Of a DNA stretch of 64,000 bases, positions 32,323 to 53,588 are shown one piece after another. The translations under genes were made by a program, and so were the position numbers. Source of the DNA: Clostridiales bacterium (GTDB lineage Bacteria > Bacillota > Clostridia > Christensenellales > UBA3700); the NCBI GenBank assembly GCA_015055975.1, contig SVHF01000001.1, forward strand, positions 134,752-198,751, in the 5' to 3' direction. The first letter of the stretch is position 1. Every line of letters begins with the position of its first letter. The notes under the pieces were generated by a model, which was not told where the DNA came from, made no database searches, and was given only the letters and a program-made list of their open reading frames with translations.

Positions 32323-32820
32323 ATGAGTTATTTATTCTCTGGTTCAGTTGAAGTTACTGCTGATGACAAGAACCGTTTTAGATTCCCAGTAAAGTATAAA
32401 GATGCTTATGCTGTAGCTGATGATGCCGCTACTTCTGAAGTTTATGTTTTGAAGACAATAAACGCTAAGTACTTAACAATCCTACCAAAGTCAGTTGGGG
32501 AAGATTTTGTAGCTCAATTAAATTCTATGTCTACATTACACTCATCTAGAGATTCTCAAATCGCTGATTGGTATTTGCAAAACCTAGAACTTTGCAAAGT
32601 AGATGGACAAGGTAGATTTATTGTTCCTCAAAAGCAAGCTAACCAAATTGGATTAACAAAAGATGCTGTTATTTCTGGTGCTGGTGCAAAATTAAGAATT
32701 TGGAATAAGGCTGACTTCATTGCAAATGAAAATGCTAAAGAAGCTGAACTTGAAAAATTACTAGCAGCTACAGATATGGAAAGAACAGATCTAGACAACT
32801 TAGTATTTGGTGTAAATTAA
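32323..32820 (+). CDS. mraZ: Transcriptional regulator MraZ
   Basis: Two DxxxR repeats ([18 protein letters not shown]). GGAGGG RBS before ATG 32323. Followed by rsmH. Confidence 0.9.
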
Positions 32821-33752
32821 TGGAATTCAAACATGTCCCTGTAATGCTAAATGAATGTATTGAGGGGCTAAATATAAAGCCAACTGGAATTTATCTAGAC
32901 GGCACACTTGGAGGCGCTGGCCACTCAAGTGAAATAGTAAAAAGATTAACAACTGGAAAATTAATAGCAATAGATAAAGATGAAGAAGCTTTAGCCGTTG
33001 CTAAAGAAAGATTAAAAGAATATAGCGATAAGATTATCTTTATACATGATGATTTTAAAAATGCTATAGAGAACCTTGACAAACTTGGTATAGGAAAGAT
33101 TGATGGAGTATTACTAGATTTAGGAGTTTCTTCTTATCAATTGGATAACGCAGAAAGAGGTTTTTCATATAACTCAGATGCGCCACTTGATATGAGAATG
33201 GATCAATCTCAAAGTATGAATGCTTATGAAGTAGTAAATAACTACTCAGAAAAAGAACTAGCAGATGTGCTTTGGAAGTATGGTGAAGAAAAGCTATCTA
33301 GAAAAATTGCATTTAACATCGTTAAGGCAAGACAAAAGGCTCCTATTAAAACAACACTTGAGCTTGCTCAAATCGTGTTAGATTCATATCCAGCTAAATT
33401 GAGATGGAAAGGCGGGAATCCTTGTAAAAGAACATTCCAAGCAATAAGAATCGAAGTAAACGGTGAGCTAAGAGGATTAAGTGAAGCAATTGAAGCATTA
33501 ACCTTAAGGTTAAATGAGGGCGGAAGGATATGTGTTATAACATTCCATTCTTTAGAAGATAGGATAGCGAAACAAATATTCGTGTACTTAGAAAAGGATT
33601 GTATATGTCCACCTGAACAATTGATATGTACCTGTAACAAGCGTAGGGATATAAAAATAATAACAAAACATCCGATTCTACCAACAGAAGAGGAACTTGA
33701 CATAAATACAAGATCGCAAAGCGCTAAGCTAAGAATTGCGGAAAGAATATAA
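32820..33752 (+). CDS. rsmH: 16S rRNA (cytosine1402-N4)-methyltransferase
   Basis: [35 protein letters not shown]. Confidence 0.95.
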
Positions 33753-33764
33753 AAGGAGGTAATT

Positions 33765-34496
33765 ATGAACGCATCAGTATTAGACAGAGAACAAGCAAAT
33801 ACACAATCTCGTATGCCAAATCCTGGATATACAAGTTTGTATTCGCAAAGAGTGCAACCTATCTCTAGACCTGTTCAAGATATGACACCTAATCGTATGC
33901 CAAGTTATCAACCACAAAACGATTATTATACAAATGTTCAAAGCGATAATATTGATATGGGTGTTAGCGCATATGACATGCAAAACATGATCCAACATAA
34001 TGCTGCTCAATTCGCTCAAACTTATAGTTACAATCCTTATTACTATGAACAACAATACTATAACAATGTTAGTGCAAACGTAGAAACTCATCCAACGAAC
34101 TTCTACCAACCTGTACAAACAAATGATTATATGTATTACCAAGCTCCACAAATGGGACAAATCAATCAAGAATACGAATATGAAAAGACAATCCCACAAA
34201 AGAGCAAGGCTAAAAATAAGACAACTAAGGCTCTAATTGCTGTTTATTTCTTGATCGTTGCTATAGCAGCTGCATTAATAATTGTTAATGTTGTTGCTGC
34301 TGCAAGTGCTGCTACAGTTACTGCTGCAACAGTTGAAACAGCTGCTGCTTCTGAAGATGCTGTATATTATACAGTTGATGATAATGGTTCAATTTCAGAA
34401 ATGGCTAAGTCAGAGCAAGTAGTTGATTATGTATATGATACATCTACTAACTGGTTTGATAGATTGTGCGATAAGATAGGCAATATCTTAGGCTAA
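33765..34496 (+). CDS. Single-pass membrane protein with an N/Q/Y-rich cytoplasmic region, in the position normally held by ftsL
   Basis: Residues 1-145 are low-complexity (Y, Q, N, P). One TM (ALIAVYFLIVAIAAALIIVNVVAAA). About 60 aa external tail. No recognisable family. Confidence 0.4.
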   Translation: MNASVLDREQANTQSRMPNPGYTSLYSQRVQPISRPVQDMTPNRMPSYQPQNDYYTNVQSDNIDMGVSAYDMQNMIQHNAAQFAQTYSYNPYYYEQQYYNNVSANVETHPTNFYQPVQTNDYMYYQAPQMGQINQEYEYEKTIPQKSKAKNKTTKALIAVYFLIVAIAAALIIVNVVAAASAATVTAATVETAAASEDAVYYTVDDNGSISEMAKSEQVVDYVYDTSTNWFDRLCDKIGNILG

Positions 34497-34588
34497 AGAA
34501 AAAAGAAATTAAATGTGTTGTAAGCTATCAAAAAGTTATTAGTTGAGAAGGCTAGTAACTTTTTGTTGAATAAGGAAGGGTATATATA

Positions 34589-35350
34589 ATGAACAAAAAG
34601 CTTATAGGCGTTATTATCGGCGTTTCTGCACTAGTAGTTTTGATTATAGTGCTTGCTGTTACGTTTACTATTAGAAATGTAGTTATCGATACCACTTCAA
34701 CATTATCTCTAACATCAGAACAACAACAAGAATTAATTTCAGATAGTGGAATTAAGATGAAATCTAGTATTTTTAGCGTTGATGAATCAATTGTCGTTAG
34801 AAATATTGAACTAGCTCATCCTTCATATAAAGTTATATCTGTTGAACGTAAATTTCCGAACACGGTTTGCGTTAATTTAACAAATCGTACACCTGTTTAC
34901 TCAATGAATATATATGATGGCACACATGCGCTAGTAGATAGAGAGCTAAAAATTGTTGATATAGTTGAAAGCGATGAAAACGTGAATTATATCACAAGAA
35001 TTAGCGGTTATGAATTGAAGAACACTGTACAAAAAGGTGGTTTTCTAAACATTAACTTTTTACGTGAGATTACGGCTGAAGCAGAGAAGCTTTCTTTTGT
35101 AAATCAAAGAATGTCTAGCTTCATCCCATCTATTGAATATTCAAATGTGGATAATAATGTTAACAATATTTTGTTAAAAACAAATACTGGTGTAATTCTA
35201 GTTATAAAAGAAGTACAAGGATCTATGGGTACATATTTTAACTATGCTTACACAAAGTATTACACTGAACTAACTGAACACCAAAAAACAACAGGATATG
35301 TTTACCTAACAGATGAAAACATCTGGACTTGGTCAAATACGTTAGATTAG
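34589..35350 (+). CDS. ftsQ: Cell division protein FtsQ/DivIB-like (POTRA domain)
   Basis: N-terminal TM. POTRA-like IVVRNIELAHPSYKVISVERKFPNTVCVNLTNRTPVY. Lies immediately before ftsA. Confidence 0.65.
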   Translation: MNKKLIGVIIGVSALVVLIIVLAVTFTIRNVVIDTTSTLSLTSEQQQELISDSGIKMKSSIFSVDESIVVRNIELAHPSYKVISVERKFPNTVCVNLTNRTPVYSMNIYDGTHALVDRELKIVDIVESDENVNYITRISGYELKNTVQKGGFLNINFLREITAEAEKLSFVNQRMSSFIPSIEYSNVDNNVNNILLKTNTGVILVIKEVQGSMGTYFNYAYTKYYTELTEHQKTTGYVYLTDENIWTWSNTLD

Positions 35351-35405
35351 TAAAATTTTTAAAAAAGTTGTTGACTTTCATTATAATATTAATTATAATG
35401 AAAAT

Positions 35406-36545
35406 ATGGGTAAAGATGTTGCGATTTTAGATATCGGATCATGCAAATTAGTATTTGCGACTGGCCATAAGAACTCAATAGGTTCTTGTGACATTACTTC
35501 TTTTTCCTGGATTCCTTATGATGGATATTATGATGGCGAATTTTTAAACTTAGATGGTTTATTAGATGATGTTACAAAAGTCTTTAAACAAGCTAATGTC
35601 CAAAAATTGCCAAAATGTCTATATGTTGGTGTTCCAGCAGAGTTTTCTAGAGTCGAAACAAAAGCATACGCCTTAAATTTTGGTAGAGAAAGATTGATTT
35701 CTTCATCAATTGTAGATGAATTACATTCAAAGGGAGATCAATATTCTGCTATTGAAGGATGGCAAGTATTCTCAAGTTCAGCTATAAGCTATTTGCTTGA
35801 TGAAGAAAGAAGTGTAGTTGACCCATATGGAGAAAGAGCAAAAACAGTTAAAGCTATTCTCTCATACATTTATGTCAAGAATATCTTCGTAGAATTGTTT
35901 GACATAATTACAAGAGAGTTTGGCTTTGAAGAAGTTAAATATATATCTGCACCTTGGGCGGTTGGTACAAGATTTGTCGATGAAGATGCAAGATTATATG
36001 GAGCTTTGAGTTTAGATATTGGCTTTGGAAGTACTTCTATATGTTACATGAAGGGAAACGGAATAGCCAAAATGGCTACAGCGCCTTTAGGCAAAGGTAG
36101 CATATATGGAAAATTAGCACAACAACTAAATGTTTCATTTGAAGAAGCATTAAGTATAGAGAAATCTATCAATTTAGATTTCGAAGCATTAGAAGGAGCT
36201 TTATATACGATATTTGCAGAAAAGCAAGTAAAGACATATAGAGCTAAGGATGTTAACAACGCTATAAGTGCAAGAATTAAAGAAATTGCAGACTTTGTAA
36301 ATGCGTTTGCATCTGAAGATAAAGGATTAATTGCTGATACAACTACTTTATATCTAACAGGTGGCGGTATCGCAGGAATAAAAGGCGGACTTATAACTTT
36401 AGAGAAGAATCTAAAGAGAAAAGTAAGGGGTAGAGCCCCAGGAATAAACAACTATGATAAACCATACTTCGCATCAATGTATGCATTACTAGATGTGGCG
36501 TGTGAGATATACGAAAATCAAAACATTTGGAAAAAGCTATTCTAA
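35406..36545 (+). CDS. ftsA: Cell division protein FtsA (divergent)
   Basis: Actin-fold phosphate loops ILDIGSCKL, LDIGFGSTS, LYLTGGGIAGIKG. C-terminal amphipathic NIWKKLF. Precedes ftsZ. Confidence 0.8.
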   Translation: MGKDVAILDIGSCKLVFATGHKNSIGSCDITSFSWIPYDGYYDGEFLNLDGLLDDVTKVFKQANVQKLPKCLYVGVPAEFSRVETKAYALNFGRERLISSSIVDELHSKGDQYSAIEGWQVFSSSAISYLLDEERSVVDPYGERAKTVKAILSYIYVKNIFVELFDIITREFGFEEVKYISAPWAVGTRFVDEDARLYGALSLDIGFGSTSICYMKGNGIAKMATAPLGKGSIYGKLAQQLNVSFEEALSIEKSINLDFEALEGALYTIFAEKQVKTYRAKDVNNAISARIKEIADFVNAFASEDKGLIADTTTLYLTGGGIAGIKGGLITLEKNLKRKVRGRAPGINNYDKPYFASMYALLDVACEIYENQNIWKKLF

Positions 36546-36569
36546 TAGAATAGATAAACGGAGGGTAAT

Positions 36570-37856
36570 ATGTCGGAGATTCAACCAAGAAATGCTAGAA
36601 TTCTAGTAATGGGCGTAGGCGGCGGTGGCTGCAACGCAGTAAACAGTATGATCGCATCAGGAGTAAACAGCGCAGAATTCGTTGCTGTTAATACAGATGC
36701 ACAAGCTTTAAATATGTCTAAAGCAGACATCAAAATTCCAATCGGAACATCTATAACAAGAGGTTTAGGTGCAGGATCAAGACCAGAAGTTGGTAAGCAA
36801 GCTGCAGATGAATCTCGTAATGAATTGGATAAGGCATTAGATAATGTTGATATGCTATTTGTAACTGCTGGTATGGGCGGCGGTACAGGAACAGGTGCTG
36901 CTCCAGTAATCGCTCAAATCGCAAGAGAAAAGGGCATAGTAACAGTTGGTGTCGTAACAAAGCCATTCGCTTTCGAAGGAAAGATCAGAGGTAAGAATGC
37001 TGAAGAAGGTATTTCAAATCTTAAGAAGGCTTGCGATACAGTAATTGTTATTCCAAATGATAACTTACTAAAAGTATTGGGACCAAAAGCAACAATGTTA
37101 GAAGCATTTAAGCATGCAGACTCAGTTTTAAGAGATGCAATTAAGGGCTTATCTGATTTGATTGCTGTTCCATCTATGATTAACGTTGACTTTGCTGACG
37201 TTAAGACAATTATGAAAGATAAAGGTATGGCTCACTTAGCTGTTGGCGTAGCAGAAGGCCCAGATAAGATTAAGTTAGCTGTTGATAGAGCTATCATGAG
37301 CGACCTATGCAATACAAATATTTCAGGTGCTACAGGTATCTTATTAAATGTAGTTGGTGGCCCATCATTAGGTATGATGGAAGCTATTCAAGCTTCAGAT
37401 CTTGTAAGACAATGCGTAGCTCCAGATGCATTAATCATCTTCGGTTTCGGTATTGAAGAAGATTATGGTGACAAGGTTCAAGTATTACTTGTTGCTACTG
37501 GATTTGAAGAAAATGCACAAATGGGAAGATTCGGTGCTACTAAGTACACAGGTGGTGTACCTCTAGATAACCAAGCATTTAAGTCTAAATATGGTTTACA
37601 ATCAGAACCACAAGTTCAACCAAGACAAGAAATGGTAGCTGATGCTAATCAATATGTTGCTCAACCAAATCAACAAATGCAACAAGCACAACCAGCTCAA
37701 CCACAAATGCAACCAACTCAACCACGTCCTCAATATTCATATGCATCAATATTCGGGACTCAACCACAACCACAACAAGCTCAACCAGCACAACCACAAC
37801 AATCTGGTAAAAAATTACCACCATGGTTTGCTAGATTAAGCAACAGAAACGTTTAA
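36570..37856 (+). CDS. ftsZ: Cell division protein FtsZ with a Q/P-rich C-terminal linker
   Basis: GVGGGGCNAVN, GGGTGTGAAPVIA tubulin signature, NVDFADV. Tail of QPQ repeats ending KKLPPWFARL. Confidence 0.97.
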   Translation: MSEIQPRNARILVMGVGGGGCNAVNSMIASGVNSAEFVAVNTDAQALNMSKADIKIPIGTSITRGLGAGSRPEVGKQAADESRNELDKALDNVDMLFVTAGMGGGTGTGAAPVIAQIAREKGIVTVGVVTKPFAFEGKIRGKNAEEGISNLKKACDTVIVIPNDNLLKVLGPKATMLEAFKHADSVLRDAIKGLSDLIAVPSMINVDFADVKTIMKDKGMAHLAVGVAEGPDKIKLAVDRAIMSDLCNTNISGATGILLNVVGGPSLGMMEAIQASDLVRQCVAPDALIIFGFGIEEDYGDKVQVLLVATGFEENAQMGRFGATKYTGGVPLDNQAFKSKYGLQSEPQVQPRQEMVADANQYVAQPNQQMQQAQPAQPQMQPTQPRPQYSYASIFGTQPQPQQAQPAQPQQSGKKLPPWFARLSNRNV

Positions 37857-37888
37857 TACAAGTTTACAACAACATATATACCCAAAAA

Positions 37889-37930
37889 GGAAGGAAGTGT
37901 CTTTCTAGATGCTTCTTTTCTTTTTTTTTT
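37889..37930 (+). terminator. Rho-independent terminator after ftsZ
   Basis: GGAAGGAAG / CTTCTTTTC 9 bp stem (two G-U pairs) followed by T10. Confidence 0.7.
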
Positions 37931-37946
37931 GCGAAAAAATCCAATA

Positions 37947-37975
37947 TTGACTATAAATATTAATAATATTATAAT
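37947..37975 (+). promoter_or_regulatory. Promoter TTGACT-17-TATAAT for the seven-gene operon
   Basis: TTGACT 37947-37952, 17 nt spacer, TATAAT 37970-37975, 36 nt before ATG 38012. Confidence 0.65.
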
Positions 37976-38011
37976 TTTTATAGTGGCAATATGTATTATT
38001 GACCACAATAT

Positions 38012-38785
38012 ATGGTGGTTATGATAGATAAAAGAACTAAAGTTATCGGATTAAAGGAATTAGAACTTACTAATGACGATTTGTTTGTTAGAAAATCTAT
38101 CACGGGCATTTCAGAAGATTCAAAAGTAATAGTGGATGAAACTCATGTAGCAATATTGTTAAAAGATGGTATTGCGCTTGAAACATTAAGACCTGGTATT
38201 TATCCAATTTATTCAAAAAATACTTTATTTTCTAAATCAACAAAACTAGATACAACAAGACTTGAATTGTTCTTCATTTCGAAAACTGCAAAAGTTAGGA
38301 TTTTATGGGGTACTCCAGCACTTTTTGATATACATGATCCAATTTCTGGTATTGCAGCAAAGATGGGAGCTAGTGGAGAAATCGAAATTAGAATCAAAAA
38401 TCCAAGACAATTCTATATTGAAGTTGTAGGGTCAAATGCAAAGTTTACTGTTGAAGATTTAAAAGAAAGATTAAAGGGTGTAATTTTATCTAGAATTGAG
38501 CCAACAATTTCATCATATATTGAAGTTGATGAAGTACCTTTAGATAGAATCGGAGAAGAAAAACTATCTATTGCAAGATACTTACAACAAGATTTAAAGC
38601 GTGAACTTAGTCTAAATTATGGGCTTGAAGTTAGCAATGTTATAGTTAGCAATGTAAATATTGCGGATAAATACAAAGAAGAAGCAGCTACAAAACTAAG
38701 AGGCGAGATGGCATGTCCTCATTGTGGCGTAAAACTTGTTCCAGGAAGCAAGTTCTGTAATAACTGTGGTATGAAGGTGAGATAA
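38012..38785 (+). CDS. SPFH/Band-7 (COG4260, YdjI-like) protein with a C-terminal zinc ribbon
   Basis: Beta-rich N-terminal half and SPFH-like core (GASGEIEIRIKNPRQF..., LNYGLEVSNVIVSNVNI). C-terminal CPHCGVKLVPGSKFCNNCG. No TM helix. Confidence 0.65.
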   Translation: MVVMIDKRTKVIGLKELELTNDDLFVRKSITGISEDSKVIVDETHVAILLKDGIALETLRPGIYPIYSKNTLFSKSTKLDTTRLELFFISKTAKVRILWGTPALFDIHDPISGIAAKMGASGEIEIRIKNPRQFYIEVVGSNAKFTVEDLKERLKGVILSRIEPTISSYIEVDEVPLDRIGEEKLSIARYLQQDLKRELSLNYGLEVSNVIVSNVNIADKYKEEAATKLRGEMACPHCGVKLVPGSKFCNNCGMKVR

Positions 38786-39129
38786 TGGGTTTATTTTCAA
38801 AGAAAGGAATCAGTATAGATTTATCTAATGCTCATATCGCAAAGGTATTAGAGGTAAGACAAACGCTTGAAGCAAATGCTAATAAATTAAAGGCTATAAT
38901 GTTCCAAGCATCAGATAGCGAGAAAAAGATATTGGCTCAAGCTTATATAGATATCAAATATGCAAATCCATTAGTTGATGAAAAAATCGCACAAATAGAT
39001 GACGAAATATCAAAAACTTTAGATGATTTAAAGTTAAACTATGCTAGACGTGTTAAAAGTGAATTAACTATTGCGAATAAAATTAATAGTTTATTGGAAT
39101 TAATACAACAACGACAAGCGTTGGAGTAG
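38785..39129 (+). CDS. Small (114 aa) coiled-coil protein starting MGLFSKK
   Basis: All-helical heptad-like sequence. Shares the MGL(F/L) N-terminus with the next two genes. ATG overlaps the upstream stop (TAATG). Confidence 0.4.
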   Translation: MGLFSKKGISIDLSNAHIAKVLEVRQTLEANANKLKAIMFQASDSEKKILAQAYIDIKYANPLVDEKIAQIDDEISKTLDDLKLNYARRVKSELTIANKINSLLELIQQRQALE

Positions 39130-39140
39130 TAGGAGGATAA

Positions 39141-39767
39141 ATGGGATTATTATCATTTTTTAGATTTAGAAAACTAAAGAGAGAAGATGTTGTTGAATCA
39201 ATCGTAAAACTTGAAAAGCAACAACAAGAAATCGAAGATGGCATCGTAGACAAAGAGGCTCATATTCAAGAACTTTTAGCAAAAGGTAAGAAAGAAAAGT
39301 CTCAAGAAATACGTTTAATGTATGCTAAACAAATTAATTATCTAAAAGAACAAAAAACTAGAGATGCAAAACGTGGCATGTATTTAACATATAACATCAA
39401 CATGATGAACAAGTTAAAAGATGCTATGGAAGATAAAGAATTCTTTACTACATCTAGCAAGATCCAATTAAACAAGTTGCTTGCTGATCAAAAGGGCTTA
39501 GCTAGATACCTAAATAAGGCATTGAAGGTAAGAATTAAAGAAGAAGATGTATTAACTAATGCAGATGAAACATTCAACGAAGTTGCATCTATGTATGAAG
39601 ATAATGACACAATTTATGGAGCAGGCAAGACAGATGACCAATTATTGGCTATGTTTGAAGAAGGCGATGCTGCAGATGAATTAGAAACAATACAAAATAT
39701 AGATGAAAAGGGCGAAGCTGCCTTATTATCAAAAACATTTGAGGAGACAGACAATGGGACTATTTAA
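39141..39767 (+). CDS. ESCRT-III (Snf7/CHMP4-like) superfamily protein
   Basis: 208 aa. MGLLSFFRFRK N-terminus. Basic helical hairpin (ESIVKLEKQQQEIEDGIV...ELLAKGKKEKSQEIRLMYAKQINYLKEQ) parallels Snf7 alpha1-alpha2. Acidic C-terminal third. Confidence 0.6.
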   Translation: MGLLSFFRFRKLKREDVVESIVKLEKQQQEIEDGIVDKEAHIQELLAKGKKEKSQEIRLMYAKQINYLKEQKTRDAKRGMYLTYNINMMNKLKDAMEDKEFFTTSSKIQLNKLLADQKGLARYLNKALKVRIKEEDVLTNADETFNEVASMYEDNDTIYGAGKTDDQLLAMFEEGDAADELETIQNIDEKGEAALLSKTFEETDNGTI

Positions 39768-40341
39768 GAGCAAAGAAGAAAAACAAATCGAAGCAAAAAT
39801 GAAGGTCAAACAAACAATTAATAAGTTTAACAAGCAAATTTCTAAATTTGAAGAGCAAAAGAAGGTATATCTTGATGCTGCAAAGCGTGCTAAAAGACTT
39901 GGCCTTCCAGATGAAGTTAGATTAGCAATTACTGGATACCTATTGACAACAAATCAACAAAAGAGAGCACAAAAGATGCTTCTAAACTTTGAGATTGCTG
40001 CTCAAATGAAAGATATGGAAGTTATGAATGCTGAATTCTTGAAGAGCTTAGGCGATGTATCTAAGGATATGATAAAGCTTACAAACAATAAGGATTTTGC
40101 AAAAGTTCAAGCTCAATTTGAAAAGGCTATGGCTTTATCTCAAACAAGAGCAGAACAAATGGATATGTATCTTGAGTCTTCTCAAACAGAATTTGCAGCT
40201 CAAACAGGCGATGCAAGTTCAATTTCTGATGACGAAATCGATTCACTTGTTACAGAACTTGCTTCTCAAGACGAAATCAATGAATCTACAATTGATGCTC
40301 AATTAGAAAAGATTCACCAAAAAATGTCTCAAACATCATAA
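39754..40341 (+). CDS. ESCRT-III (CHMP3/Vps24- or Vps2-like) superfamily protein with a MIM-like C-terminus
   Basis: MGLFKSKEEK (compare human CHMP3 MGLFGKTQEK). KFEEQKKVYLDAAKRAKRLG...QQKRAQKMLLNF...MKDM...LGDVSKDM follows the CHMP helix pattern. Acidic tail ends IDAQLEKIHQKM. GAGGAG RBS. Starts 14 nt inside the previous gene. Confidence 0.65.
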   Translation: MGLFKSKEEKQIEAKMKVKQTINKFNKQISKFEEQKKVYLDAAKRAKRLGLPDEVRLAITGYLLTTNQQKRAQKMLLNFEIAAQMKDMEVMNAEFLKSLGDVSKDMIKLTNNKDFAKVQAQFEKAMALSQTRAEQMDMYLESSQTEFAAQTGDASSISDDEIDSLVTELASQDEINESTIDAQLEKIHQKMSQTS

Positions 40342-40348
40342 GAGGATT

Positions 40349-41785
40349 ATGGAAGATATAACAATTTTAAGAGATAAATATGACATTCTTTTAAAGAAAG
40401 CCGAAACAGCTGATGCTATGGGCAATTATTCTATTGCGTATAGAAATTATATGTTAGCTGCAGAAACTATGCTTAAAATTGCAAAAACATCTACGCCAGA
40501 ACTAAAGAAAGTTCAAATTAAGCGTGCAAATGATTTAGTTGCAAGAGCAGAACTTCTAGGCAATCCACCACAAACTCCAAAAAGATCTGCATCTCAACCT
40601 CAAGCTAAAGGTCAAGAAACTCAAAGAAATGAGGAAGAAGATACAGGAAAAGAGTGGGTAGGAGCTGAGATTCCAAATATCAAGTTCAAAGATGTAGCAG
40701 GATTGGATGAAGTTAAAAAGACTGTCATGACTAGAATGATAAATCCAGTTTTGTATCCAGATAAGTATGCAAAATATGGTAAAAAGGTAGGCGGTGGCGT
40801 TTTACTATATGGGCCTCCAGGAACAGGTAAGACATTTATCGCAAAAGCAATCGCCGGTGAAGTAGGCGCAACATTCTATGCAATTAAAGGCTCAGATATT
40901 ATGAGCAAATATGTAGGCGAATCAGAAAAGAACATTTCTTCTTTATTTGAAGCTGCTAAAGAACAAAAGTTATCTATCATCTTTATTGATGAAATGGATT
41001 CATTATTTGGAGAAAGAGGAAAAGATACACATAACGATAAGCGTGTTAATGAATTCCTACAACAAATCGATGGATTTGCTTCAAAGACGGATAACTTATT
41101 AATCTTGGGTGCTACAAATAGGCCATGGGATGTAGATTCAGCTGCAGTTAGATCTGGAAGATTTTCAGAAAAGATCTATGTTCCACTTCCTGATGAAAAG
41201 GCAAGAGAGTTTATGTTCAAGCATAACCTTGAAAATGTGCCACTAGGAAACGATGTAGATTTTGATAAATTAGTAGGCTTAACAGATGGCTATTCTGGTG
41301 CAGATATTGCCGAAATTTGCGATAGAGCAAAAGAAGATCCACTAAACATCTATATTAAAACAGATGTTGAAGAACCAGTATCTATGAAATACATAGAAGC
41401 TGCAATAAAGAAAGTAAAACCAACAGTTAGCAAGCTAGAAATCAGAAGATTTGAAGAATATGCAGGCATTAATAGAGATGAGGAAAAACCACAAGCTCCA
41501 ACTAAAGAGAAATGTGATGTTAAATTTGCAAGTACTCAAATTCAACTTTTACCAAATCAAAAGCCAGTATTAGAATTCACGCTATCTCGCGATTTTGATA
41601 AGGTGTATTTAGCTATTGATGGTTCTAACTATATTTGTAATAAAAAATTAGCATCATGGGAAAGCGAGCCTCTTAATATCAAAGATGCTGGCACTTATGA
41701 TGTAGAAATCACGTCGAATAACTTTAAAGCCGTAGGGAGAATTTCATTTATTAAAGGACTAGAAGAAGACGATCTAGGCCTATAA
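40349..41785 (+). CDS. Vps4/CdvC-like AAA ATPase: N-terminal MIT domain, one AAA cassette, extra C-terminal beta-rich domain
   Basis: MIT: KAETADAMGNYSIAYRNYMLAAETMLKIAK...IKRANDLVARAELL (compare Vps4 KAGNYEEAL..Y..A......K...I..K...YLDRAEKL). Walker A GPPGTGKT, Walker B IIFIDEMD, SRH GATNRPWDVDSAAVRSGRF. Confidence 0.8.
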   Translation: MEDITILRDKYDILLKKAETADAMGNYSIAYRNYMLAAETMLKIAKTSTPELKKVQIKRANDLVARAELLGNPPQTPKRSASQPQAKGQETQRNEEEDTGKEWVGAEIPNIKFKDVAGLDEVKKTVMTRMINPVLYPDKYAKYGKKVGGGVLLYGPPGTGKTFIAKAIAGEVGATFYAIKGSDIMSKYVGESEKNISSLFEAAKEQKLSIIFIDEMDSLFGERGKDTHNDKRVNEFLQQIDGFASKTDNLLILGATNRPWDVDSAAVRSGRFSEKIYVPLPDEKAREFMFKHNLENVPLGNDVDFDKLVGLTDGYSGADIAEICDRAKEDPLNIYIKTDVEEPVSMKYIEAAIKKVKPTVSKLEIRRFEEYAGINRDEEKPQAPTKEKCDVKFASTQIQLLPNQKPVLEFTLSRDFDKVYLAIDGSNYICNKKLASWESEPLNIKDAGTYDVEITSNNFKAVGRISFIKGLEEDDLGL

Positions 41786-41793
41786 GGTGAGTT

Positions 41794-43233
41794 ATGGCAG
41801 AAGTAGTAGCAAAATTAAAAGAATCATTTGATGGGATGATTGTTAAAAAGTCATCTTTGCAAGGTGTATTTTCATCATTGAATTTACCTGCGTTTATTAG
41901 AGATTGGTTCTTAAAAAGGTACGCAGATAAAGATGGTAGCGTTAATGTTAATTTTGTACTTGAAAAGATTAAAGACGTAATGCCAAGAAAGGATGAATGG
42001 AATTCTTATCTTGATAGACTCCTAAATGGAGAAAGGGTAAAGTTTCTAGCAAAGATTATTATTGATATCGATATAAAGACTGAAATAATAACTTTTGCGC
42101 TTCCAGATTTTGGCGTTTCATTTAAACAAACACACATTCCAAAATCTGTTTGGGATAAGCACAAAAAAGAATTGCTTGTAACAGACGGCGAGTTTTGGGG
42201 CATTTTGGATCTTGAATATAAGCAAATTCAAAATGGTAAAAAGCAAGAAGGAAAGATATCTTTAGTAGATTTTAAAGACTTTAGGCCATACAAGGTTGAT
42301 TTGGGATTCTTTAAAGAAGCAAGAAAGAACTTTGAAATTGACGAATGGATTGATGTTCTTCTTGGCGCAATTGATTACAACGCAAATGGATTTAAAGATG
42401 AAAATCAAAAAATAACAATGCTTACAAGATTGTTGCCATTTGTAGAAGAAAGATTGAATTTGATGGAACTTGCGCCAAAGGGAACAGGAAAGAGCTATAT
42501 CTTTTCTCAAATATCTAAAAAAGGATGGCTAGTTTCTGGTGGCGTTATGACTAGAGCCAAGATGTTCTATGATATGAATAAACATCAAGATGGCTTAGTA
42601 TCTTTTTATGATTATGTAGCGCTAGATGAAATATCTACAATTAAGTTCCCAGATATCGATGAGATGCGTGGAGCTATGAAAGGATATTTAGAAGCTGGAA
42701 CATATAACGTTGGAAATAAAGCAGGTTCTGGAAAAGCAGGTGTTGTTTTGCTAGGTAATATCCGTGAAGAGAAGATGGATGTTAACAACAACATGCTAGA
42801 AGAATTGCCACCACTTTTTGAAGATTCTGCATTAATTGATAGATTCCATGGATTTATCAAAGGCTGGGATGTTCCAAGAATGAACGAAGACATGAAAGTT
42901 AACGATTGGGCATTAAATACAGAATATTTCTCTGAGATAATGCATGCATTAAGAGAAGATGTTATAGAAAAAGCAATCGTTGATGAATTGGTCGAAGTTC
43001 CAAAGGATGCAGATACAAGAGACACAAAAGCAATTAAGAGAATTGCAACAGCATATGTAAAACTATTCTTCCCACACTGGACAAGTGTAGATGATGTAAA
43101 TAAGGAAGAATTTAAAAAATACTGTCTAGATAGAGCAGTAGAAATGAGAAAAATAATTAAAACTCAATTAGGAATCATGGATAGCGAATATAAAAAGCAT
43201 CCAGTTCAAGAGTTTAAGATAAAGGGAGAGTAA
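41794..43233 (+). CDS. BrxL-type (TIGR02688/PF13337-like) AAA+ ATPase lacking the Lon-protease domain
   Basis: Blocks EWIDVLLGAI, RLLPFVEERLNLMELAPKGTGKSYIF, LVSGGVMTRAKMFYDM, YDYVALDEIS and IDRFHGFIKGWDVPRM match BrxL as I recall it. 479 aa, ending before where the Lon domain would begin. Confidence 0.8.
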   Translation: MAEVVAKLKESFDGMIVKKSSLQGVFSSLNLPAFIRDWFLKRYADKDGSVNVNFVLEKIKDVMPRKDEWNSYLDRLLNGERVKFLAKIIIDIDIKTEIITFALPDFGVSFKQTHIPKSVWDKHKKELLVTDGEFWGILDLEYKQIQNGKKQEGKISLVDFKDFRPYKVDLGFFKEARKNFEIDEWIDVLLGAIDYNANGFKDENQKITMLTRLLPFVEERLNLMELAPKGTGKSYIFSQISKKGWLVSGGVMTRAKMFYDMNKHQDGLVSFYDYVALDEISTIKFPDIDEMRGAMKGYLEAGTYNVGNKAGSGKAGVVLLGNIREEKMDVNNNMLEELPPLFEDSALIDRFHGFIKGWDVPRMNEDMKVNDWALNTEYFSEIMHALREDVIEKAIVDELVEVPKDADTRDTKAIKRIATAYVKLFFPHWTSVDDVNKEEFKKYCLDRAVEMRKIIKTQLGIMDSEYKKHPVQEFKIKGE

Positions 43234-45377
43234 TGAAGTTAACAGCGTTTCAATGCCCAATATGTATGAGTACGCATTTTAGAAAAGAGCAAGATGCTTA
43301 TGTTTGCGAATCATGCGGTAATACTTATACAGAAAAACAAGCAGATAGCCAAATGTTTATCGATCTTAGAATCGCAAATAGACATAGACAATTTGCTGAG
43401 TTTTCTAAAGCAAAAGAAATATATACAGAAATCATCGCAAAATACAAAGATGAAGAAGATGTTTCTTCTGCTTATTGGGGTTTATTGCTATGCGATCAAT
43501 CAGTAATGCTTGAAGTTGACAATCAAGGCCAACTATTCCCATCGTTTTATAGAGTTAAATCTATGCCAATTGAAGAAACTGATGCTTATAAAAAGTTGAT
43601 GAAATACGTCAAAAAGCATGCTGAAGAAAAGTTGGACGATTATCAAGAGAGAATAAATATCATCGAATCAGCTAGAGATAAGGCCAATGTTATAGCAAAT
43701 TCTTCAAAACCATATGATGTATTCATTTGTTTTAAGAAAACTCAACTTGATTCAGATATGGTAACTCCAGATTATGATGTAGCAAATGAAATCTATAATG
43801 AGCTATCTACAAAATATAAAGTATTCTATTCTGAAAAGTCTTTAAGAAATATTAGAGTTAGAGATTTTGAGCCAAATATCTATTATGGACTTTATACTGC
43901 AAAAGTAATGCTTATCATTTGCTCAAAGCGTGAATTTTTGGAATCTCATTGGATGAAAAATGAGTGGAAGAGATTCATGGAATTAAATAAATCTAGAGAT
44001 CAAGATTATAAGAGCATTATTCCTATCTTTATAGACAACTTTACTGAAGAAGATTTGCCAGATGAACTTGCACATAAGCAAGCTCTAAAATATGGTATAT
44101 CTTTAATTTCAGATATCGATAAAACTCTACAAAAGATTATTAACCCAATCGATAAAGATGAAGAGCAACAAAAGCAAATTGAAATGCTTATGGCTAATCA
44201 AAAGAAAATCTTAGAGGAGTGGTCAAAGCGTGAAAGCCAAACAATTGAGTTTAGCCAAGAGCAAGGAAAACCAAGATTGACTCCACAAGAAGAAAAAATT
44301 AGATCAATTTTAAAGCTAGCAAAAGTTAACATCGAAGATTTGGGTAATTTCGACGAAGCAGAAGGACAAGTTAGAAAAGCACAAGAAATTGATGCTGAAA
44401 ATTATGTAACTTGGTTCTACAAATTGATGATAGATTTCAAGGCTCAATCAATTGATGAGCTTATTATGCATGATAACTTCAGAGATAGCGTAAATTATAG
44501 ACTATTTGTTAAATATGCAAATAAAGCAGGAAAAGGCGATGATGTTCAAAAGCTTGAAGGAGCTAGAGAAGATTTCTTAAGAGCCTCAGCTCAAAAAGTA
44601 AATGATTTATTGCAAGCTTTAAAAGATAATCCAAATCCACTTGAAGAAGATGTCGGAAAGATAAAACTAGTTTACGAATCACTTCCTAAAGAAGCTCAAC
44701 AATATGTCGTTGATTTGAAAGAAACAATTTTAAACGCAAGAAAACAAATGCGTGAAAACAAAATTGGCAACTTTAAAACAAGACTAACTATGGTTAGCAA
44801 TAAAGAGCATCCAAATTACGACGATATTTTGAAGATTGAGGAAGAATATGAGAATTTGTCCGAAGATGAGCGAGATTTGGCTGGAGATGGCTATAAACAA
44901 GTCATAACGGATGCATCTAATAAGATGAAGGATGCAAAAGTTCAAAAAGTTCAACAAGCTTTGATAACAATTGATAATCAAGAGAATCCTTCTCGTGATG
45001 ATTTGATTCATATAGAGAAGATGTATAACGAATTAGAAGACAAGTCTAAAGCTTCTGTTCATGACTATAAAGAGATAATGCTAAGAGCATACGATAAAAA
45101 GTATATTAACGATGCTAAATTGTTATCTAAATACTTAACAAAATTGCCAACAGAAAAAGTTCCAAATAGAGATATCTATACGAAACTTGAAAATAGATAT
45201 AAAGCACTTCCAAAGAAATACAGATTAATGGTAGAGCATATTGAATATTTGGACGATTATTACGATAAGTTAATAGCATCTGAAGGCGGAAAAGTAACAA
45301 CTGTTGAAAAACAACAAGAAAATATAAAGACAACAAAGGGAGAGCCAGCGAAAAAGAAAAAACACTGGTTGTGGTAG
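43233..45377 (+). CDS. Zinc-ribbon / TIR-domain / TPR-like and four-repeat helical protein
   Basis: CPICMS...CESCG ribbon (residues 8-29). TIR core from YDVFICF (residue 161) to SHWMKNEWKRF with candidate catalytic Glu244 (43962-43964). Four 58-60 aa repeats at residues 466-680. Confidence 0.8.
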   Translation: MKLTAFQCPICMSTHFRKEQDAYVCESCGNTYTEKQADSQMFIDLRIANRHRQFAEFSKAKEIYTEIIAKYKDEEDVSSAYWGLLLCDQSVMLEVDNQGQLFPSFYRVKSMPIEETDAYKKLMKYVKKHAEEKLDDYQERINIIESARDKANVIANSSKPYDVFICFKKTQLDSDMVTPDYDVANEIYNELSTKYKVFYSEKSLRNIRVRDFEPNIYYGLYTAKVMLIICSKREFLESHWMKNEWKRFMELNKSRDQDYKSIIPIFIDNFTEEDLPDELAHKQALKYGISLISDIDKTLQKIINPIDKDEEQQKQIEMLMANQKKILEEWSKRESQTIEFSQEQGKPRLTPQEEKIRSILKLAKVNIEDLGNFDEAEGQVRKAQEIDAENYVTWFYKLMIDFKAQSIDELIMHDNFRDSVNYRLFVKYANKAGKGDDVQKLEGAREDFLRASAQKVNDLLQALKDNPNPLEEDVGKIKLVYESLPKEAQQYVVDLKETILNARKQMRENKIGNFKTRLTMVSNKEHPNYDDILKIEEEYENLSEDERDLAGDGYKQVITDASNKMKDAKVQKVQQALITIDNQENPSRDDLIHIEKMYNELEDKSKASVHDYKEIMLRAYDKKYINDAKLLSKYLTKLPTEKVPNRDIYTKLENRYKALPKKYRLMVEHIEYLDDYYDKLIASEGGKVTTVEKQQENIKTTKGEPAKKKKHWLW

Positions 45378-45379
45378 AT

Positions 45380-45838
45380 ATGAAGTGTATATTTTGTGGA
45401 TCAATTGAAGATAAGGTTATTGATAGTAGATTAAATGAAGATGGTACATCAATAAGACGTAGACGTGAATGCTGTTCATGTGGCAGACGTTTTACAACTT
45501 ATGAAACAATTGAATTAACTCCAATCATGGTAGTTAAGAAAAACGGAGAAAGACAAGAATATTCAAGAAACAAATTAAAACAAGGTATTGTTAATGCTTG
45601 CGCAAAGCGTCCTGTTTCTATGGAAACTATAGATAAGCTAGTTGCTGAAGTAGAAAAGAAGATAAATAATTCTTTGGAACAAGAAATCAAATCATCTGTA
45701 ATTGGTGAATATGTAATGGAAGGTTTAAAGGATATAGACGATGTTGCATATATTAGATTTGCGGCTGTATATAGAGAATTTAAAGATATTAATAGCTGGT
45801 TAAGCGAAATTAAAGACCTTGTAAAAGAGAAGAAATAA
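45380..45838 (+). CDS. nrdR: Transcriptional repressor NrdR
   Basis: MKCIFCG...CCSCGRRFTTYE zinc ribbon plus ATP-cone. ATG lies 2 nt after the TIR gene stop. Confidence 0.95.
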   Translation: MKCIFCGSIEDKVIDSRLNEDGTSIRRRRECCSCGRRFTTYETIELTPIMVVKKNGERQEYSRNKLKQGIVNACAKRPVSMETIDKLVAEVEKKINNSLEQEIKSSVIGEYVMEGLKDIDDVAYIRFAAVYREFKDINSWLSEIKDLVKEKK

Positions 45839-46836
45839 TGAAAAAAAGATTGGTTCTAATTTTATCAATATTGCTTTTGTCAATATCTTTGATATTGCCT
45901 CTTGTTTCATGCAAGAAAAATACTGATGTAGAACCAGAGAAAAAAGAAGTTATTCCATATACATTTGTAGATGGATCTTCTATATATATAAAAATGGGAA
46001 CTTATCCTCAAACTATAGCATCAGTTTCTGCTGATACGATTAAAGCAAATGGAACATATGATGAACAAACTGGATATTATACATATGAGGGAAGTTTATA
46101 TAAATTAGTTATTGCGCACCCATGCACGCAAGAGATGAGCGCTGTATTTTCAGATGGTCAAAGTGTTGTAGAAGGAAAAGAGTATGCATTTAAAGTTGAA
46201 GATATAATTTGGAAACTTATAAATAAACAACTTGAAGAAGAAGACTATTTTGCATATTCAAATAAAGTATTAGATACGGCAATCTACCAACAACAAGCAA
46301 AAATTGGAAAAGCATCAAATAATGTTTATTATCTATACGATAGTAATAATAGATTGCAAATAGAAGAAGAAATATATGCAAACAACTGGGAATATTCAGT
46401 ACTAAGATCTGCGCTTGCTCAATTCTATAACATAGCATTCAATGAAGATAATAAAACTGCAATAAAACAAGTAGATAATGTTAATTCATCTCAAGATAGT
46501 GGAGGGGATTATTTCCCATCACATCAAAACAATACAAAAGACTATGTCTTTTGCTTATCAAAAGCGCAAGCTTCAAATTCTCGTTATGGATTTACCGATG
46601 AAGATAAGGAAAGAAGATTGAGAGAAGTTACTGATTATGCGATTGCAAAGGGAGCTTTTTATATAGAAACAACAGATGGAGCAAAGTTCGGTTGGATTTG
46701 GACAAGAACTGCTGCTCAAACATCTAATTCTGTGTATAAAATTACTACAACAGGTGATATAACTGCATCTTTTATCAATAATGATGACGATTTAAAGATT
46801 GGTTATGTGCCTGCAATGCGTATAACTAAAATCTAA
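45838..46836 (+). CDS. Lipoprotein (DUF6273-like, G-x-YPQT motif)
   Basis: Signal peptide with lipobox LPLVSC. IKMGTYPQT motif shared with the 52761-53588 protein. Confidence 0.55.
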   Translation: MKKRLVLILSILLLSISLILPLVSCKKNTDVEPEKKEVIPYTFVDGSSIYIKMGTYPQTIASVSADTIKANGTYDEQTGYYTYEGSLYKLVIAHPCTQEMSAVFSDGQSVVEGKEYAFKVEDIIWKLINKQLEEEDYFAYSNKVLDTAIYQQQAKIGKASNNVYYLYDSNNRLQIEEEIYANNWEYSVLRSALAQFYNIAFNEDNKTAIKQVDNVNSSQDSGGDYFPSHQNNTKDYVFCLSKAQASNSRYGFTDEDKERRLREVTDYAIAKGAFYIETTDGAKFGWIWTRTAAQTSNSVYKITTTGDITASFINNDDDLKIGYVPAMRITKI

Positions 46837-46839
46837 GAT

Positions 46840-46869
46840 TTGACATATTTATTTATACAATGATATATT
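46840..46869 (+). promoter_or_regulatory. Candidate rnpB promoter
   Basis: TTGACA 46840-46845, then an extended -10-like TGATATATT at 46861-46869. Confidence 0.45.
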
Positions 46870-46876
46870 TACTTAG

Positions 46877-47199
46877 CAAGATGGCCAGATGATCGCAGGC
46901 CCGCAAGGGAATGAGGAAAGTCCGAGCACCACAAGGCAGAGTGCTGGTTAACGACCAGTCAAGGTGACTTGAAGGAAAGTGCAACAGAAAATAACCGCCA
47001 ACTTAGTTGGTAAGGATGAAAAGGCGAGGTAAGAGCTCACCGTCCTTAAGGTGACTTAGGGAGCCGTGTAAACCCCACTTGGTGCAAGAGAAAGCGACAA
47101 TTAGTAGCCTGCTAGTCGCGAAATCGCTTGAGCGTATTGGCAACAATGCGCCTAGACAGATGATCATCCAATACAGAACTCGGCTTATAGACCATCTTG
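46877..47199 (+). ncRNA. rnpB: RNase P RNA (compact, about 323 nt)
   Basis: GAGGAAAGTCCG at 46913-46924, ACAGAACTCGGCTTAT at 47173-47188, P1 pairing CAAGATGG.../...CCATCTTG, followed by a T run. Confidence 0.9.
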
Positions 47200-47265
47200 T
47201 TTTTTTATGCAATTATGCGTGAATATGCGTATAAATATACATTTAAGATTTTTACTAAACAATTG

Positions 47266-52760: not shown

Positions 52761-53588
52761 ATGAAGATGATAAATCTAAAAAAATATAAACTAACTATAT
52801 CTATTTGTATTGTTTTACTTTTATCTGTATTCACGGCTTGTTCATCGAATAGTGTAAACGTACCCGATACTGTTGAATCTCCTGGGGACGTTGAGGAAAC
52901 AAAATTAGAAATAACCTCAATTTCAATTTTAAGTGCTCTCGAACCAATATTATTTGGAAAATTTCCTCAAACTATCGATGAAGAAGCGCAAGTTACTATA
53001 AATAAGAATTCAAACGGTTATTATGCAGGAAGCAACATGCAATACTATGCACAAGTCAATGGCAAGTATTACAAAGTTGAAGATGTTTTGTGGGATGCAT
53101 TCCAATTAGAAAGCGGCGATATTTTATTAGTTTCTCGAAATATATTATTCAGCGCAAGATATGATGATTATCATGATTATTTTGAAGGAGAAAGACAAAT
53201 TTTCCAAAACGATGGTTTCGTATTTACGGATGAAGAAGAAGCAAGAATTAAGAGCACTAATGTTAAATATGAACATAGAATACAATCTTCAATTTATTAT
53301 TGTGTTCAAAGATTCTTATTGAATTTTGATCAATTAAATGAATTATATCCAACAACAAATAAAGTATTGAAAAAACCAACAGATTACGCAGCAATTAAAC
53401 TAGATGTAAATGAATATGGTTATTCTTCTTGGTGGTTAGCTCCAAATAAGGGGAAGAGCCTTTATGTTTCAGATGCCGGCGTAATTAGTAATAAGGGCAA
53501 TACTTATATTGATGTAACAGAAAGTTTTGCTTATATTAGATATGCTCAACGTGGCATGGTTCCATGTATGATAATTTCAGCTGATTAA
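52761..53588 (+). CDS. Lipoprotein, paralogue of the 45838-46836 product
   Basis: Lipobox SVFTACSS. ILFGKFPQT motif and general layout shared with the other lipoprotein. Confidence 0.5.
   Translation: MKMINLKKYKLTISICIVLLLSVFTACSSNSVNVPDTVESPGDVEETKLEITSISILSALEPILFGKFPQTIDEEAQVTINKNSNGYYAGSNMQYYAQVNGKYYKVEDVLWDAFQLESGDILLVSRNILFSARYDDYHDYFEGERQIFQNDGFVFTDEEEARIKSTNVKYEHRIQSSIYYCVQRFLLNFDQLNELYPTTNKVLKKPTDYAAIKLDVNEYGYSSWWLAPNKGKSLYVSDAGVISNKGNTYIDVTESFAYIRYAQRGMVPCMIISAD

Follow-up and report, generated by a model that had tools for sequence, protein, structure and literature searches.

A bacterial operon with an ESCRT-III-like gene, a MIT-AAA ATPase gene, and SPFH, TIR, and BrxL partners in gut Clostridia

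Can a bacterium encode a membrane-remodelling machine of the ESCRT-III and Vps4 type, and what would a TIR protein and a BrxL-type ATPase do beside it? The question is raised by seven adjoining + strand genes (g1 to g7) in a 64,000-nucleotide stretch of a Clostridiales genome (GCA_015055975.1, contig SVHF01000001.1, positions 134,752 to 198,751), the whole of which is called the window here. ESCRT-III subunits polymerise on membranes, MIT domains bind the C-terminal helices of these subunits, and an AAA ring extracts the subunits. According to a 2025 review (PMC7619361), a Vps4-like ATPase appears to be absent from bacteria. An earlier reading of the letters alone, referred to below as the original prediction, had proposed that the seven genes join an ESCRT-III/Vps4-like set to a BrxL-type ATPase and a TIR protein, either as a new conflict system or as a membrane apparatus with a captured two-gene defence module. 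Our analysis recovered all seven open reading frames (7/7) where they had been placed, as follows.

38012..38785, + strand: g1, soluble SPFH (Band_7_1) protein with a C-terminal CxxC...CxxC zinc ribbon (by Pfam)
38785..39129, + strand: g2, helical protein of 114 amino acids (aa) beginning with MGLF
39141..39767, + strand: g3, helical protein of 208 aa, the constant partner of g4
39754..40341, + strand: g4, predicted Snf7-family ESCRT-III protein of 195 aa (by family profile searches)
40349..41785, + strand: g5, protein with MIT, AAA, Vps4_C, and a C-terminal domain (by Pfam and motifs)
41794..43233, + strand: g6, Lon-less BrxL-type AAA+ ATPase (BrxL_N and BrxL_ATPase)
43233..45377, + strand: g7, protein with a zinc ribbon, a TPR-like hairpin, a TIR domain, and a helical C-terminal region

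The ESCRT-III question concerns g4 above all. Its start at 39754 (MGLFKSK) was shared by 38 of the 38 aligned homologues, and since every one of them begins with an invariant MGLFK, this shorter start was taken as the correct one. An exhaustive profile search with g4 yielded 521 clusters. Pfam Snf7 was matched by 48 of 104 diverse representatives of the family (best E 1.4e-9), while the next commonest Pfam family was matched by 7 of the 104, and PspA_IM30 was absent among the 25 families listed for these representatives. A wider hidden Markov model (HMM) of the family, built on a broadened alignment (A3) that was too diverse to seed a locus scan, matched CHMP2A among the PDB sequences (E 1e-6), followed by CHMP3, CHMP1B, Vps24, and CdvB, and ESCRT-III entries made up 9 of the 25 matches listed. 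No ESCRT-III entry was found in PDB sequences when g3 and g4 were searched as single sequences or with HMMs of the narrow families (A1). The AlphaFold2 (AF2) model of g4, which has low confidence (predicted local distance difference test, pLDDT, 59), contained helices at 7-49, 52-109, 113-150, 159-171, and 177-194, an order compatible with the ESCRT-III pattern of an alpha1-alpha2 hairpin, alpha3-alpha5, and a C-terminal helix, and its top Foldseek matches were CHMP1B and CHMP2A-CHMP3 with probabilities of 0.99-1.0 and E of 0.03-0.06. Among the matches listed, PspA and Vipp1 structures ranked well below the CHMPs in both the HMM and the Foldseek searches. The 48 Snf7 matches, together with the family HMM reaching CHMP2A, indicate at the level of the sequence family that g4 is a Snf7-branch ESCRT-III protein. 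At its C-terminus, an acidic linker is followed by an amphipathic helix with the consensus IDKEMEELKKKI, which may correspond to a MIM1, although the match is inexact.

The adjoining g3 accompanies g4 in every locus. A hairpin at aa 14-97 of its AF2 model was confident (pLDDT 80-96), and hhalign of g3 against the broad ESCRT-III family was collinear over 166 columns, with E 6.8e-4 and a probability of 27%. Foldseek returned CdvB2 and CHMP3 at E of about 0.7-1, mixed with unrelated helical proteins, and sequence and profile searches of Pfam and PDB gave nothing relevant for g3. It is probably a divergent ESCRT-III-like paralogue of g4. Of the two proteins in which a Snf7/CHMP helix pattern had been read, g4 was borne out as ESCRT-III by its sequence family (48/104) and g3 remained marginal. 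The shared N-terminus of the three small proteins, MGL(F/L), was seen as described (g2 MGLF, g3 MGLL, g4 MGLF).

In g5, a MIT domain (aa ~4-75) is followed by a linker, one AAA cassette, a Vps4_C helix (aa 340-371), and a C-terminal domain of ~90 aa. Walker A (155), the pore loop KYVGE (187), Walker B (210), and RSGR (268) were all intact. In Pfam, AAA was matched with E 2e-42, Vps4_C with 24.8 bits, above its cut-off of 21.3, and MIT with 24.6 bits, under the cut-off of 30; many close relatives have PF04212 on record. When a profile was made from the N-terminal 90 residues of 24 relatives, it matched the solved MIT domains of chitin synthase (E 5e-4), VPS4A, VPS4B, SKD1, and Sulfolobus 2w2u. 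Residues 4-371 could be aligned with the MIT-AAA-Vps4_C ATPase of a haloarchaeon (31% identity, E 2e-50). We tried the 225-aa gene upstream of this haloarchaeal ATPase as an archaeal ESCRT-III reference and set it aside, as it was unconvincing against the g4 family and had no Pfam Snf7 match.

The clade of this ATPase is another matter. With the small subdomain and C-helix of g5, p97 D2 (a single-domain construct) scored 60 bits, katanin 48, and CdvC (4lcb) 39. Membership of the Vps4 clade, or orthology with Vps4, is not claimed, since the PDB ranking of the AAA core put p97/CDC48 D2 on top. The motifs of g5 are ones that we take to be intermediate, PWDVDSA and GESEK resembling the meiotic clade and RSGRF the classical clade. 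Judged by its sequence, g5 is an ATPase of Vps4 architecture rather than a proven Vps4 orthologue, so that the earlier assignment (MIT plus Vps4-clade AAA) stands for the architecture and is not supported for the clade (215 vs 650 bits for the CdvC equivalog, p97 D2 on top). The C-terminal domain (aa ~389-478, positions 41513-41782) is ~90 aa long, beta-rich, and ends in EEDDLGL; it had no match in Pfam or among PDB sequences. Some g5 relatives of ~700-760 aa contain two AAA cassettes and two Vps4_C matches (L064 2364-4553; P0135-P0141), as if the ATPase had been duplicated in tandem.

The last gene, g7, was found to have a zinc ribbon formed by C8, C11, C25, and C28 (CPIC at residue 8 and CESC at residue 25) and a TIR domain at aa ~160-290 (Pfam TIR_2, E 8e-11). 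The g7-family profile matched the TIR of RUN1 (E 3.8e-7), and the NADase TIRs of RUN1, RPV1, Roq1, and L6 were its best solved matches. The invariant Glu of the family (E244, codon 43962-43964, within WMKNEW) corresponds in the alignment to the position at which the RUN1 mutant 7s2z has Ala. No PADLOC TIR model matched g7 at E up to 0.1. The zinc ribbon, TIR, and repeats originally proposed for this protein were supported in their first two parts; C-terminal repeats are visible by eye and were not picked up by self-BLAST.

The g6 protein matched Pfam BrxL_N and BrxL_ATPase (E 1.7e-116), lacked a Lon domain, and passed TIGR02688 with 440 bits against a cut-off of 329; the PADLOC BrxL model PDLC02505 matched over its full length with 681 bits. 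Its identification as a BrxL-type ATPase without Lon is therefore upheld. The best annotated relative, with 43% identity, is a BREX-4 brxL beside pglZ on a Methanosphaera plasmid. No pglZ, brxC, methyltransferase, or PAPS reductase gene was found near g6 in the window, nor within 10 kb in two further loci (L002/L003).

For g1, Pfam gave Band_7_1 (PF13421, E 4e-19) and Zn_Ribbon_1 (E 5.5e-7), in agreement with the SPFH/Band-7 protein with a CxxC..CxxC ribbon first described from the letters. By analogy, we propose that g1 may act as a membrane scaffold or recruiter. No match was found for g2 in Pfam, NCBIfam, or PADLOC. It is weakly homologous (E 9e-6) to a 135-aa protein (x2) of the commonest variant of the system, class B below, in which an N-terminal transmembrane (TM) helix takes the place of the MGLF start. 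Hhalign of g2/x2, and of x3, against g3 and g4 showed no relationship. Prediction of TM helices in g1-g7 gave none in any of the seven proteins (0/7), which is consistent with peripheral membrane binding.

The co-occurrence of these genes elsewhere was one of the checks that had been proposed for the locus. Our pattern scan used one genome per species, and the comparison at the level of open reading frames took 80 loci, 60 of which had enough flanking DNA to be assessed. Relatives of g4 were present in at least 116 species genomes, and all of their hosts in the scan were metagenome-assembled genomes of gut or rumen Clostridia, named Caccovivens or Coproplasma or labelled Christensenella, Catabacter, or Lachnospiraceae. 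Such gut Clostridia are abundant but uncultured, and little is known of their cell biology. A core of SPFH-zinc ribbon protein, g3, ESCRT-III protein (g4), MIT-AAA ATPase, and zinc ribbon-TIR-family protein was complete in 59 of the 60 loci; the g1-type SPFH gene likewise occurred in 59/60. The g5 gene stood directly after g4 in every locus long enough to judge, as it did in the distant variants L089, L092, and L093. The co-occurrence set as a test was thus observed. Four architecture classes were distinguished.

Class A (the window): seven genes, g1-g7, always between ftsZ and nrdR, in at least 4 species
Class B: 43/60 loci, with g2 in a TM version, an added TPR-like gene of 119 aa, a short ATPase, and no BrxL
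Class C: long ATPase, BrxL, and TIR proteins of 1300-1450 aa
Class D: two tandem TIR proteins ahead of a short ATPase

Classes A, C, and D keep the TIR motif S.W(V/M)(K/R)NEW. Four types of architecture have the catalytic Glu without exception, and so do the distant variants. In class B, the TIR-family protein is ~1250 aa long with TM helices and a Gly-rich C-terminus; the motif is replaced by (I/V)KN(L/I)(Y/F)DRY, the catalytic Glu is lost, and no Pfam TIR match was obtained. The C-terminal module of g7-type proteins varies among helical repeats, TM plus an extracellular domain, FHA, and DUF6273. The BrxL gene was present in 10 of the 60 loci, all of them loci whose ATPase is extended at the C-terminus by a linker and a domain of ~90 aa that ends in KGxxE(D/N)D(L/M)(G/D)(L/I); it was found in 10/10 loci with the extension and in 0/50 without it. 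This strict co-variation suggests that BrxL, although an accessory, is integrated into the system and not merely adjacent to it. The capture of a two-gene defence module, as originally envisaged, does not fit these data, because the TIR gene is part of the core in every architecture class and in the distant variants, and BrxL is tied to the ATPase extension.

In the distant variants, a core of Band_7_1, ESCRT-III, AAA, and TIR-X proteins is kept and the accessories are swapped. L089 encodes an ESCRT-III-RuvB-NERD fusion, a zinc ribbon-Sel1-trypsin protease, and a zinc ribbon-TPR-TIR-DUF6273 fusion. L093 (GCA_964563725.1, 7175-15163) encodes a Band_7_1 protein, a 237-aa gene product, ESCRT-III, AAA, a TIR_2+FHA protein, a PP2C, and a Ser/Thr kinase. 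A trypsin-like protease is carried by L092 and by class D. In other metagenomic bacteria, g4-like ESCRT-III sequences were also seen N-terminal to a RuvB-like AAA+ with WHD_RuvB and NERD (P0282, P0341; L089 8001-10403) and N-terminal to an FtsK_alpha/FtsK_SpoIIIE ATPase (P0300, P0308; L088 245-2089), and a trypsin-like protease gene often follows fusions of both kinds.

As for the transcription of the genes in the window, three further features were identified.

37884..37935, + strand: terminator-like hairpin and T run 3' of ftsZ (19-pair stem at 37884-37925, then the T run)
37947..37975, + strand: sigma-70-type promoter candidate TTGACT-17-TATAAT (11/12 match to the consensus)
45380..46836, + strand: nrdR and a DUF6273 lipoprotein gene, probably co-transcribed with g1-g7

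The promoter candidate was the top match within 37500-46200 by consensus score alone, and the transcript start is a predicted one. The junctions comprised 1-nt overlaps of g1/g2 (at 38785) and g6/g7 (at 43233), an 11-nt gap between g2 and g3 (39129/39141), a 14-nt overlap of g3 and g4 (39754/39767), a 7-nt gap between g4 and g5 (40341/40349), and an 8-nt gap between g5 and g6 (41785/41794). Thus, the ftsZ terminator followed by this promoter, and each overlap and gap of the first description, were reproduced. Its end of the unit at 45377 was not. The stop codon of g7 lies at 45375-45377, the ATG of nrdR at 45380 is 3 nt downstream, and the DUF6273 lipoprotein gene (45838-46836) overlaps the nrdR stop. 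No + strand terminator was seen within g1-g7, or from g7 to 46836. Because of this, and because nrdR starts so close to g7, the transcription unit probably comprises nine genes rather than seven, reading through nrdR and the DUF6273 gene. Both genes sit after the system in all class A loci.

Right after the DUF6273 gene lies rnpB (46877-47203, bacterial RNase P class A RNA, 286 bits), with its own promoter TTGACA-18-TATATT at 46840. Two DUF6273-type lipoprotein genes were found in the window, at 45838-46836 and 52761-53588. The TIR protein of L089 has a DUF6273 domain fused at its C-terminus, a hint of some connection with the downstream DUF6273 gene. A functional tie of the operon to that gene was set aside, as the second DUF6273-like lipoprotein elsewhere in the window weakens the support from this fusion.

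The rest of the window is ordinary chromosome, with dnaX, recR, groEL, tig, clpPX, mraZ-rsmH-ftsQ-like-ftsA-ftsZ, and arg and his operons. A host without a cell wall was considered and set aside, 64 kb being too short a stretch for such a reading. The division cluster (32820-37856) is short, consisting of rsmH, a Q/N/Y-rich TM protein gene, a POTRA (FtsQ-like) protein gene, ftsA, and ftsZ; no mur, pbp, or ftsW gene lies between rsmH and the FtsQ-like gene in the window, and FtsZ carries a long Q/P-rich tail. A SepF-like protein whose N-terminal half is long, Q/P/M-rich, and of low complexity is encoded at 20842-21546, between a YggS-like gene and lspA. At 16411-17592, there is a CobW/G3E-family GTPase-like protein with an unusually long His/Asp/Glu-rich insert, followed by a second G3E-like gene. 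The sole obvious mobile-element gene of the window, a 548-aa transposase-like open reading frame on the - strand (4928-6574), is far from the operon.

The closest known system is archaeal ESCRT/Cdv, in particular its euryarchaeal form called Meth_adaptin. According to Makarova et al. 2024 (PMC10936438), the Meth_adaptin loci include an SPFH-zinc-ribbon protein, and FHA, kinase, and phosphatase genes are associated with archaeal ESCRT loci. As in Meth_adaptin, the Clostridia loci have one or more Snf7-family genes just upstream of the MIT-AAA gene, an SPFH-zinc-ribbon protein, and zinc-ribbon accessories, and the FHA, PP2C, and Ser/Thr kinase of L093 resemble those of the archaeal FHA and main clades. 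Unlike the archaeal systems, the host belongs to Bacteria (gut Clostridia), and the core includes TIR, with BrxL as an accessory; wH/ESCRT-II, CdvA, and an adaptin-appendage protein were not detected here, and the core of g5 is nearer to CDC48 D2, with no room for the beta-domain insertion.

The closest bacterial analogue is pspA-ydjGHI of B. subtilis, in which the Band_7_1 protein YdjI is needed to recruit PspA to the membrane, with partners that have zinc-ribbon and TM segments (PMC8581546). Common to both are a polymer from the ESCRT-III superfamily as well as a soluble Band_7_1-type SPFH protein, and YdjG starts with a zinc ribbon (MIISYKCPNC according to a cloning primer, PMC8581546), the operon likewise having a zinc-ribbon partner. 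However, g4 is placed by its sequence in the Snf7 branch and not in PspA_IM30, which was unlisted among the 25 families; Psp has no MIT-AAA, TIR, or BrxL, all of which are present in the operon, and the operon has no equivalent of the TPM-domain protein YdjH. Bacterial Vps4-like ATPases have been described by Ravi et al. 2024 (PMC11237479) in Cyanobacteria, Bacteroidetes, Verrucomicrobia, and others, with an unrelated TPR-6TM gene in place of snf7, and scattered bacterial Snf7 homologues were also reported, none of them in the present composition. The g5 ATPase resembles these as a bacterial MIT-type AAA+ similar to archaeal Vps4 and inferred to act near the membrane. Unlike them, the present operons keep a Snf7-family gene and occur in Clostridia.

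Two of the partners have relatives in defence systems. Like the BREX type 4 protein, g6 contains full-length BrxL_N and BrxL_ATPase and passes TIGR02688; unlike in BREX, pglZ, brxC, and PAPS reductase are absent nearby, and g6 follows a MIT-AAA with an extra C-terminal domain. As in TIR NADase modules (Thoeris ThsB and plant TNLs such as RUN1), g7 has the TIR signature with Glu in the S.W...E motif, whereas ThsA, SLOG, STING, or another known signal-receptor partner is absent at the locus, the TIR of g7 is fused to a zinc ribbon and TPR within an ESCRT-like operon, and the TIR is catalytically degenerate in the commonest variant (class B). On the locus, PADLOC returned a BrxL match and generic AAA matches only, which agrees with the earlier expectation that no named defence system would be matched. 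No description of this system was found in the searched literature, the coverage of which was incomplete, so that an earlier description elsewhere is possible. What appears to be new here is an ESCRT-III and MIT-AAA system in Bacteria with SPFH, TIR, and BrxL partners.

What would such a system do? We consider, with a probability of roughly 60%, that it is an ATP-driven ESCRT-III/Vps4-type membrane-remodelling machine with a TIR-bearing adaptor or sensor and a role in stress or defence. In this machine, g4, probably co-polymerising with g3, would use its N-terminal MGLF amphipathic motif to bind the cytoplasmic membrane on the inner side, and the soluble SPFH protein g1 might concentrate or recruit the polymer in the manner of YdjI with PspA. 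The MIT domain of g5 would engage the C-terminal helices of the subunits while its AAA ring pulls subunits out, and ATP hydrolysis by g5 could thereby power turnover of the polymer and constriction, sealing, or shedding of the membrane. Upstream of these steps, g7 may serve as an adaptor that selects site or signal, with a C-terminal module that varies between lineages, and its TIR, predicted to be catalytically intact, could add an NAD+-cleaving output, either as a signal or as NAD+ depletion. In BREX, BrxL is a DNA-binding AAA+ ring. Here, BrxL probably docks on the extension of g5, which would tie the machine to DNA, plausibly foreign DNA.

A recycling ATPase occurs in every locus, and this favours dynamic repair, sealing, or shedding over a lethal effector that acts once. 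The most likely role is a membrane-centred stress or defence response and not cell division. The division role that had been read from the adjacency to ftsZ is weakly supported and was set aside, since ftsZ adjoins the system in 4 of the 60 loci only. The relatives appear, by their domain composition, to possess the modularity of conflict systems (NERD, trypsin-like protease, FtsK-like/RuvB-like ATPases, and FHA with kinase and phosphatase).

Several results weigh against this reading. As to the ESCRT-III and Vps4 assignments, g4 of the window when searched alone matched Pfam Snf7 (PF03357) below threshold, with E 0.87 over Snf7 positions 1-158/171, so that its assignment leans on transitive homology through the family. 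The AF2 models of g4 and g3 have low confidence (pLDDT 59 and 65), and none of their Foldseek matches had E <0.01. The g5 sequence fails the NCBIfam CdvC equivalog (215 vs 650 bits), and its ATPase core appears closer to p97/CDC48 D2 than to Vps4/CdvC by score; g5 is maybe a convergent MIT-CDC48-like ATPase. As to the defence role, the system is flanked by housekeeping genes, class B, whose TIR protein has lost the catalytic Glu, shows synteny across 43 species, no relative of g4 was found in 50,697 phage GenBank records or in IMG/VR, and PADLOC gave no TIR match.

These latter points bear on the alternative that survives best, a vertically inherited, lineage-specific ESCRT-III machine for housekeeping of the envelope (membrane maintenance, vesicles, or late septum closure), in which the TIR fold would be an oligomerising adaptor and BrxL a non-immune addition. 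Upstream of the syntenic class B loci (43/60; 43 species) lie bPH_2, SDR, and MscL, two ABC exporters lie downstream, and the loci retain the TIR protein despite the lost Glu and the missing Pfam TIR match. The exporters were considered as parts of the class B system and set aside, being inseparable from the general synteny. Class A is likewise stable between ftsZ and nrdR in at least 4 species, relatives are missing from the phage collections, and the precedent of PspA-YdjI is an envelope-stress system. However, classes A, C, and D and the distant variants invariably have the catalytic Glu, and BrxL, NERD, and the trypsin-like protease are accessories of the type found in conflict systems. 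The C-terminal modules of the TIR proteins are variable, as are the flanks outside classes A and B (unique in most class C, class D, and other loci), and ftsZ is adjacent in just 4/60 loci. We regard a purely housekeeping machine as unlikely, yet deserving of serious attention. On the side of defence stand the intact TIR, BrxL, the NERD and protease accessories, and the variable sensor-like domains, and on the side of envelope maintenance the synteny, the housekeeping flanks, the loss of Glu in class B, and the lack of a link to mobile elements.

An abortive-infection system, in which phage is sensed through BrxL or TIR, the ESCRT-III polymer disrupts the membrane lethally, and TIR drains NAD+, appeared improbable. 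In its favour, the locus encodes a BREX-type BrxL as well as a TIR whose catalytic Glu is intact, and the conflict-like modularity of the relatives would suit it. But the conserved recycling ATPase and SPFH scaffold suit constructive remodelling better than one-shot suicide, class B keeps ESCRT-III, AAA, and SPFH while its TIR has lost the Glu and the Pfam match, and PADLOC found no known abortive-infection family. Chance or purely syntenic juxtaposition of a set of five ESCRT-like genes and a BrxL-TIR pair unrelated to it, to which the absence of BrxL from 50/60 loci and the BREX membership of BrxL in annotated records would lend themselves, is very improbable and largely refuted by co-occurrence, as the TIR protein accompanies the core in 59/60 loci and in the distant variants, BrxL co-varies perfectly with the ATPase extension, and the junctions are a 1-nt overlap or an 8-nt gap with no internal terminator.

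Returning to the stress or defence machine, a more specific form of it can be put forward tentatively, with rather less than even confidence. The system would be a native, vertically maintained ESCRT-III/Vps4-like machine of Christensenellales-type gut Clostridia, whose obligate fifth subunit is an NADase-competent TIR that couples scission or repair to NAD+ immune signalling, with a BrxL DNA ring added in some lineages. A bacterial machine of this kind may have been exchanged with co-resident methanogenic archaea.

With relatives in more than 100 species, the system pairs a predicted Snf7-branch ESCRT-III gene with a MIT-AAA gene in Bacteria, the domain from which a Vps4-like ATPase was called absent (PMC7619361). 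It offers a bacterial setting for asking how ESCRT-III polymers are recruited and recycled, and it bears on the origin and the horizontal spread of ESCRT. With TIR as a constant subunit and BrxL as an accessory, it suggests a tie, so far unrecognised, between membrane remodelling and immunity based on NAD+ or DNA. If true, a machine with an NADase TIR would parallel in prokaryotes the link that eukaryotes have between ESCRT membrane repair and cell death or immunity.

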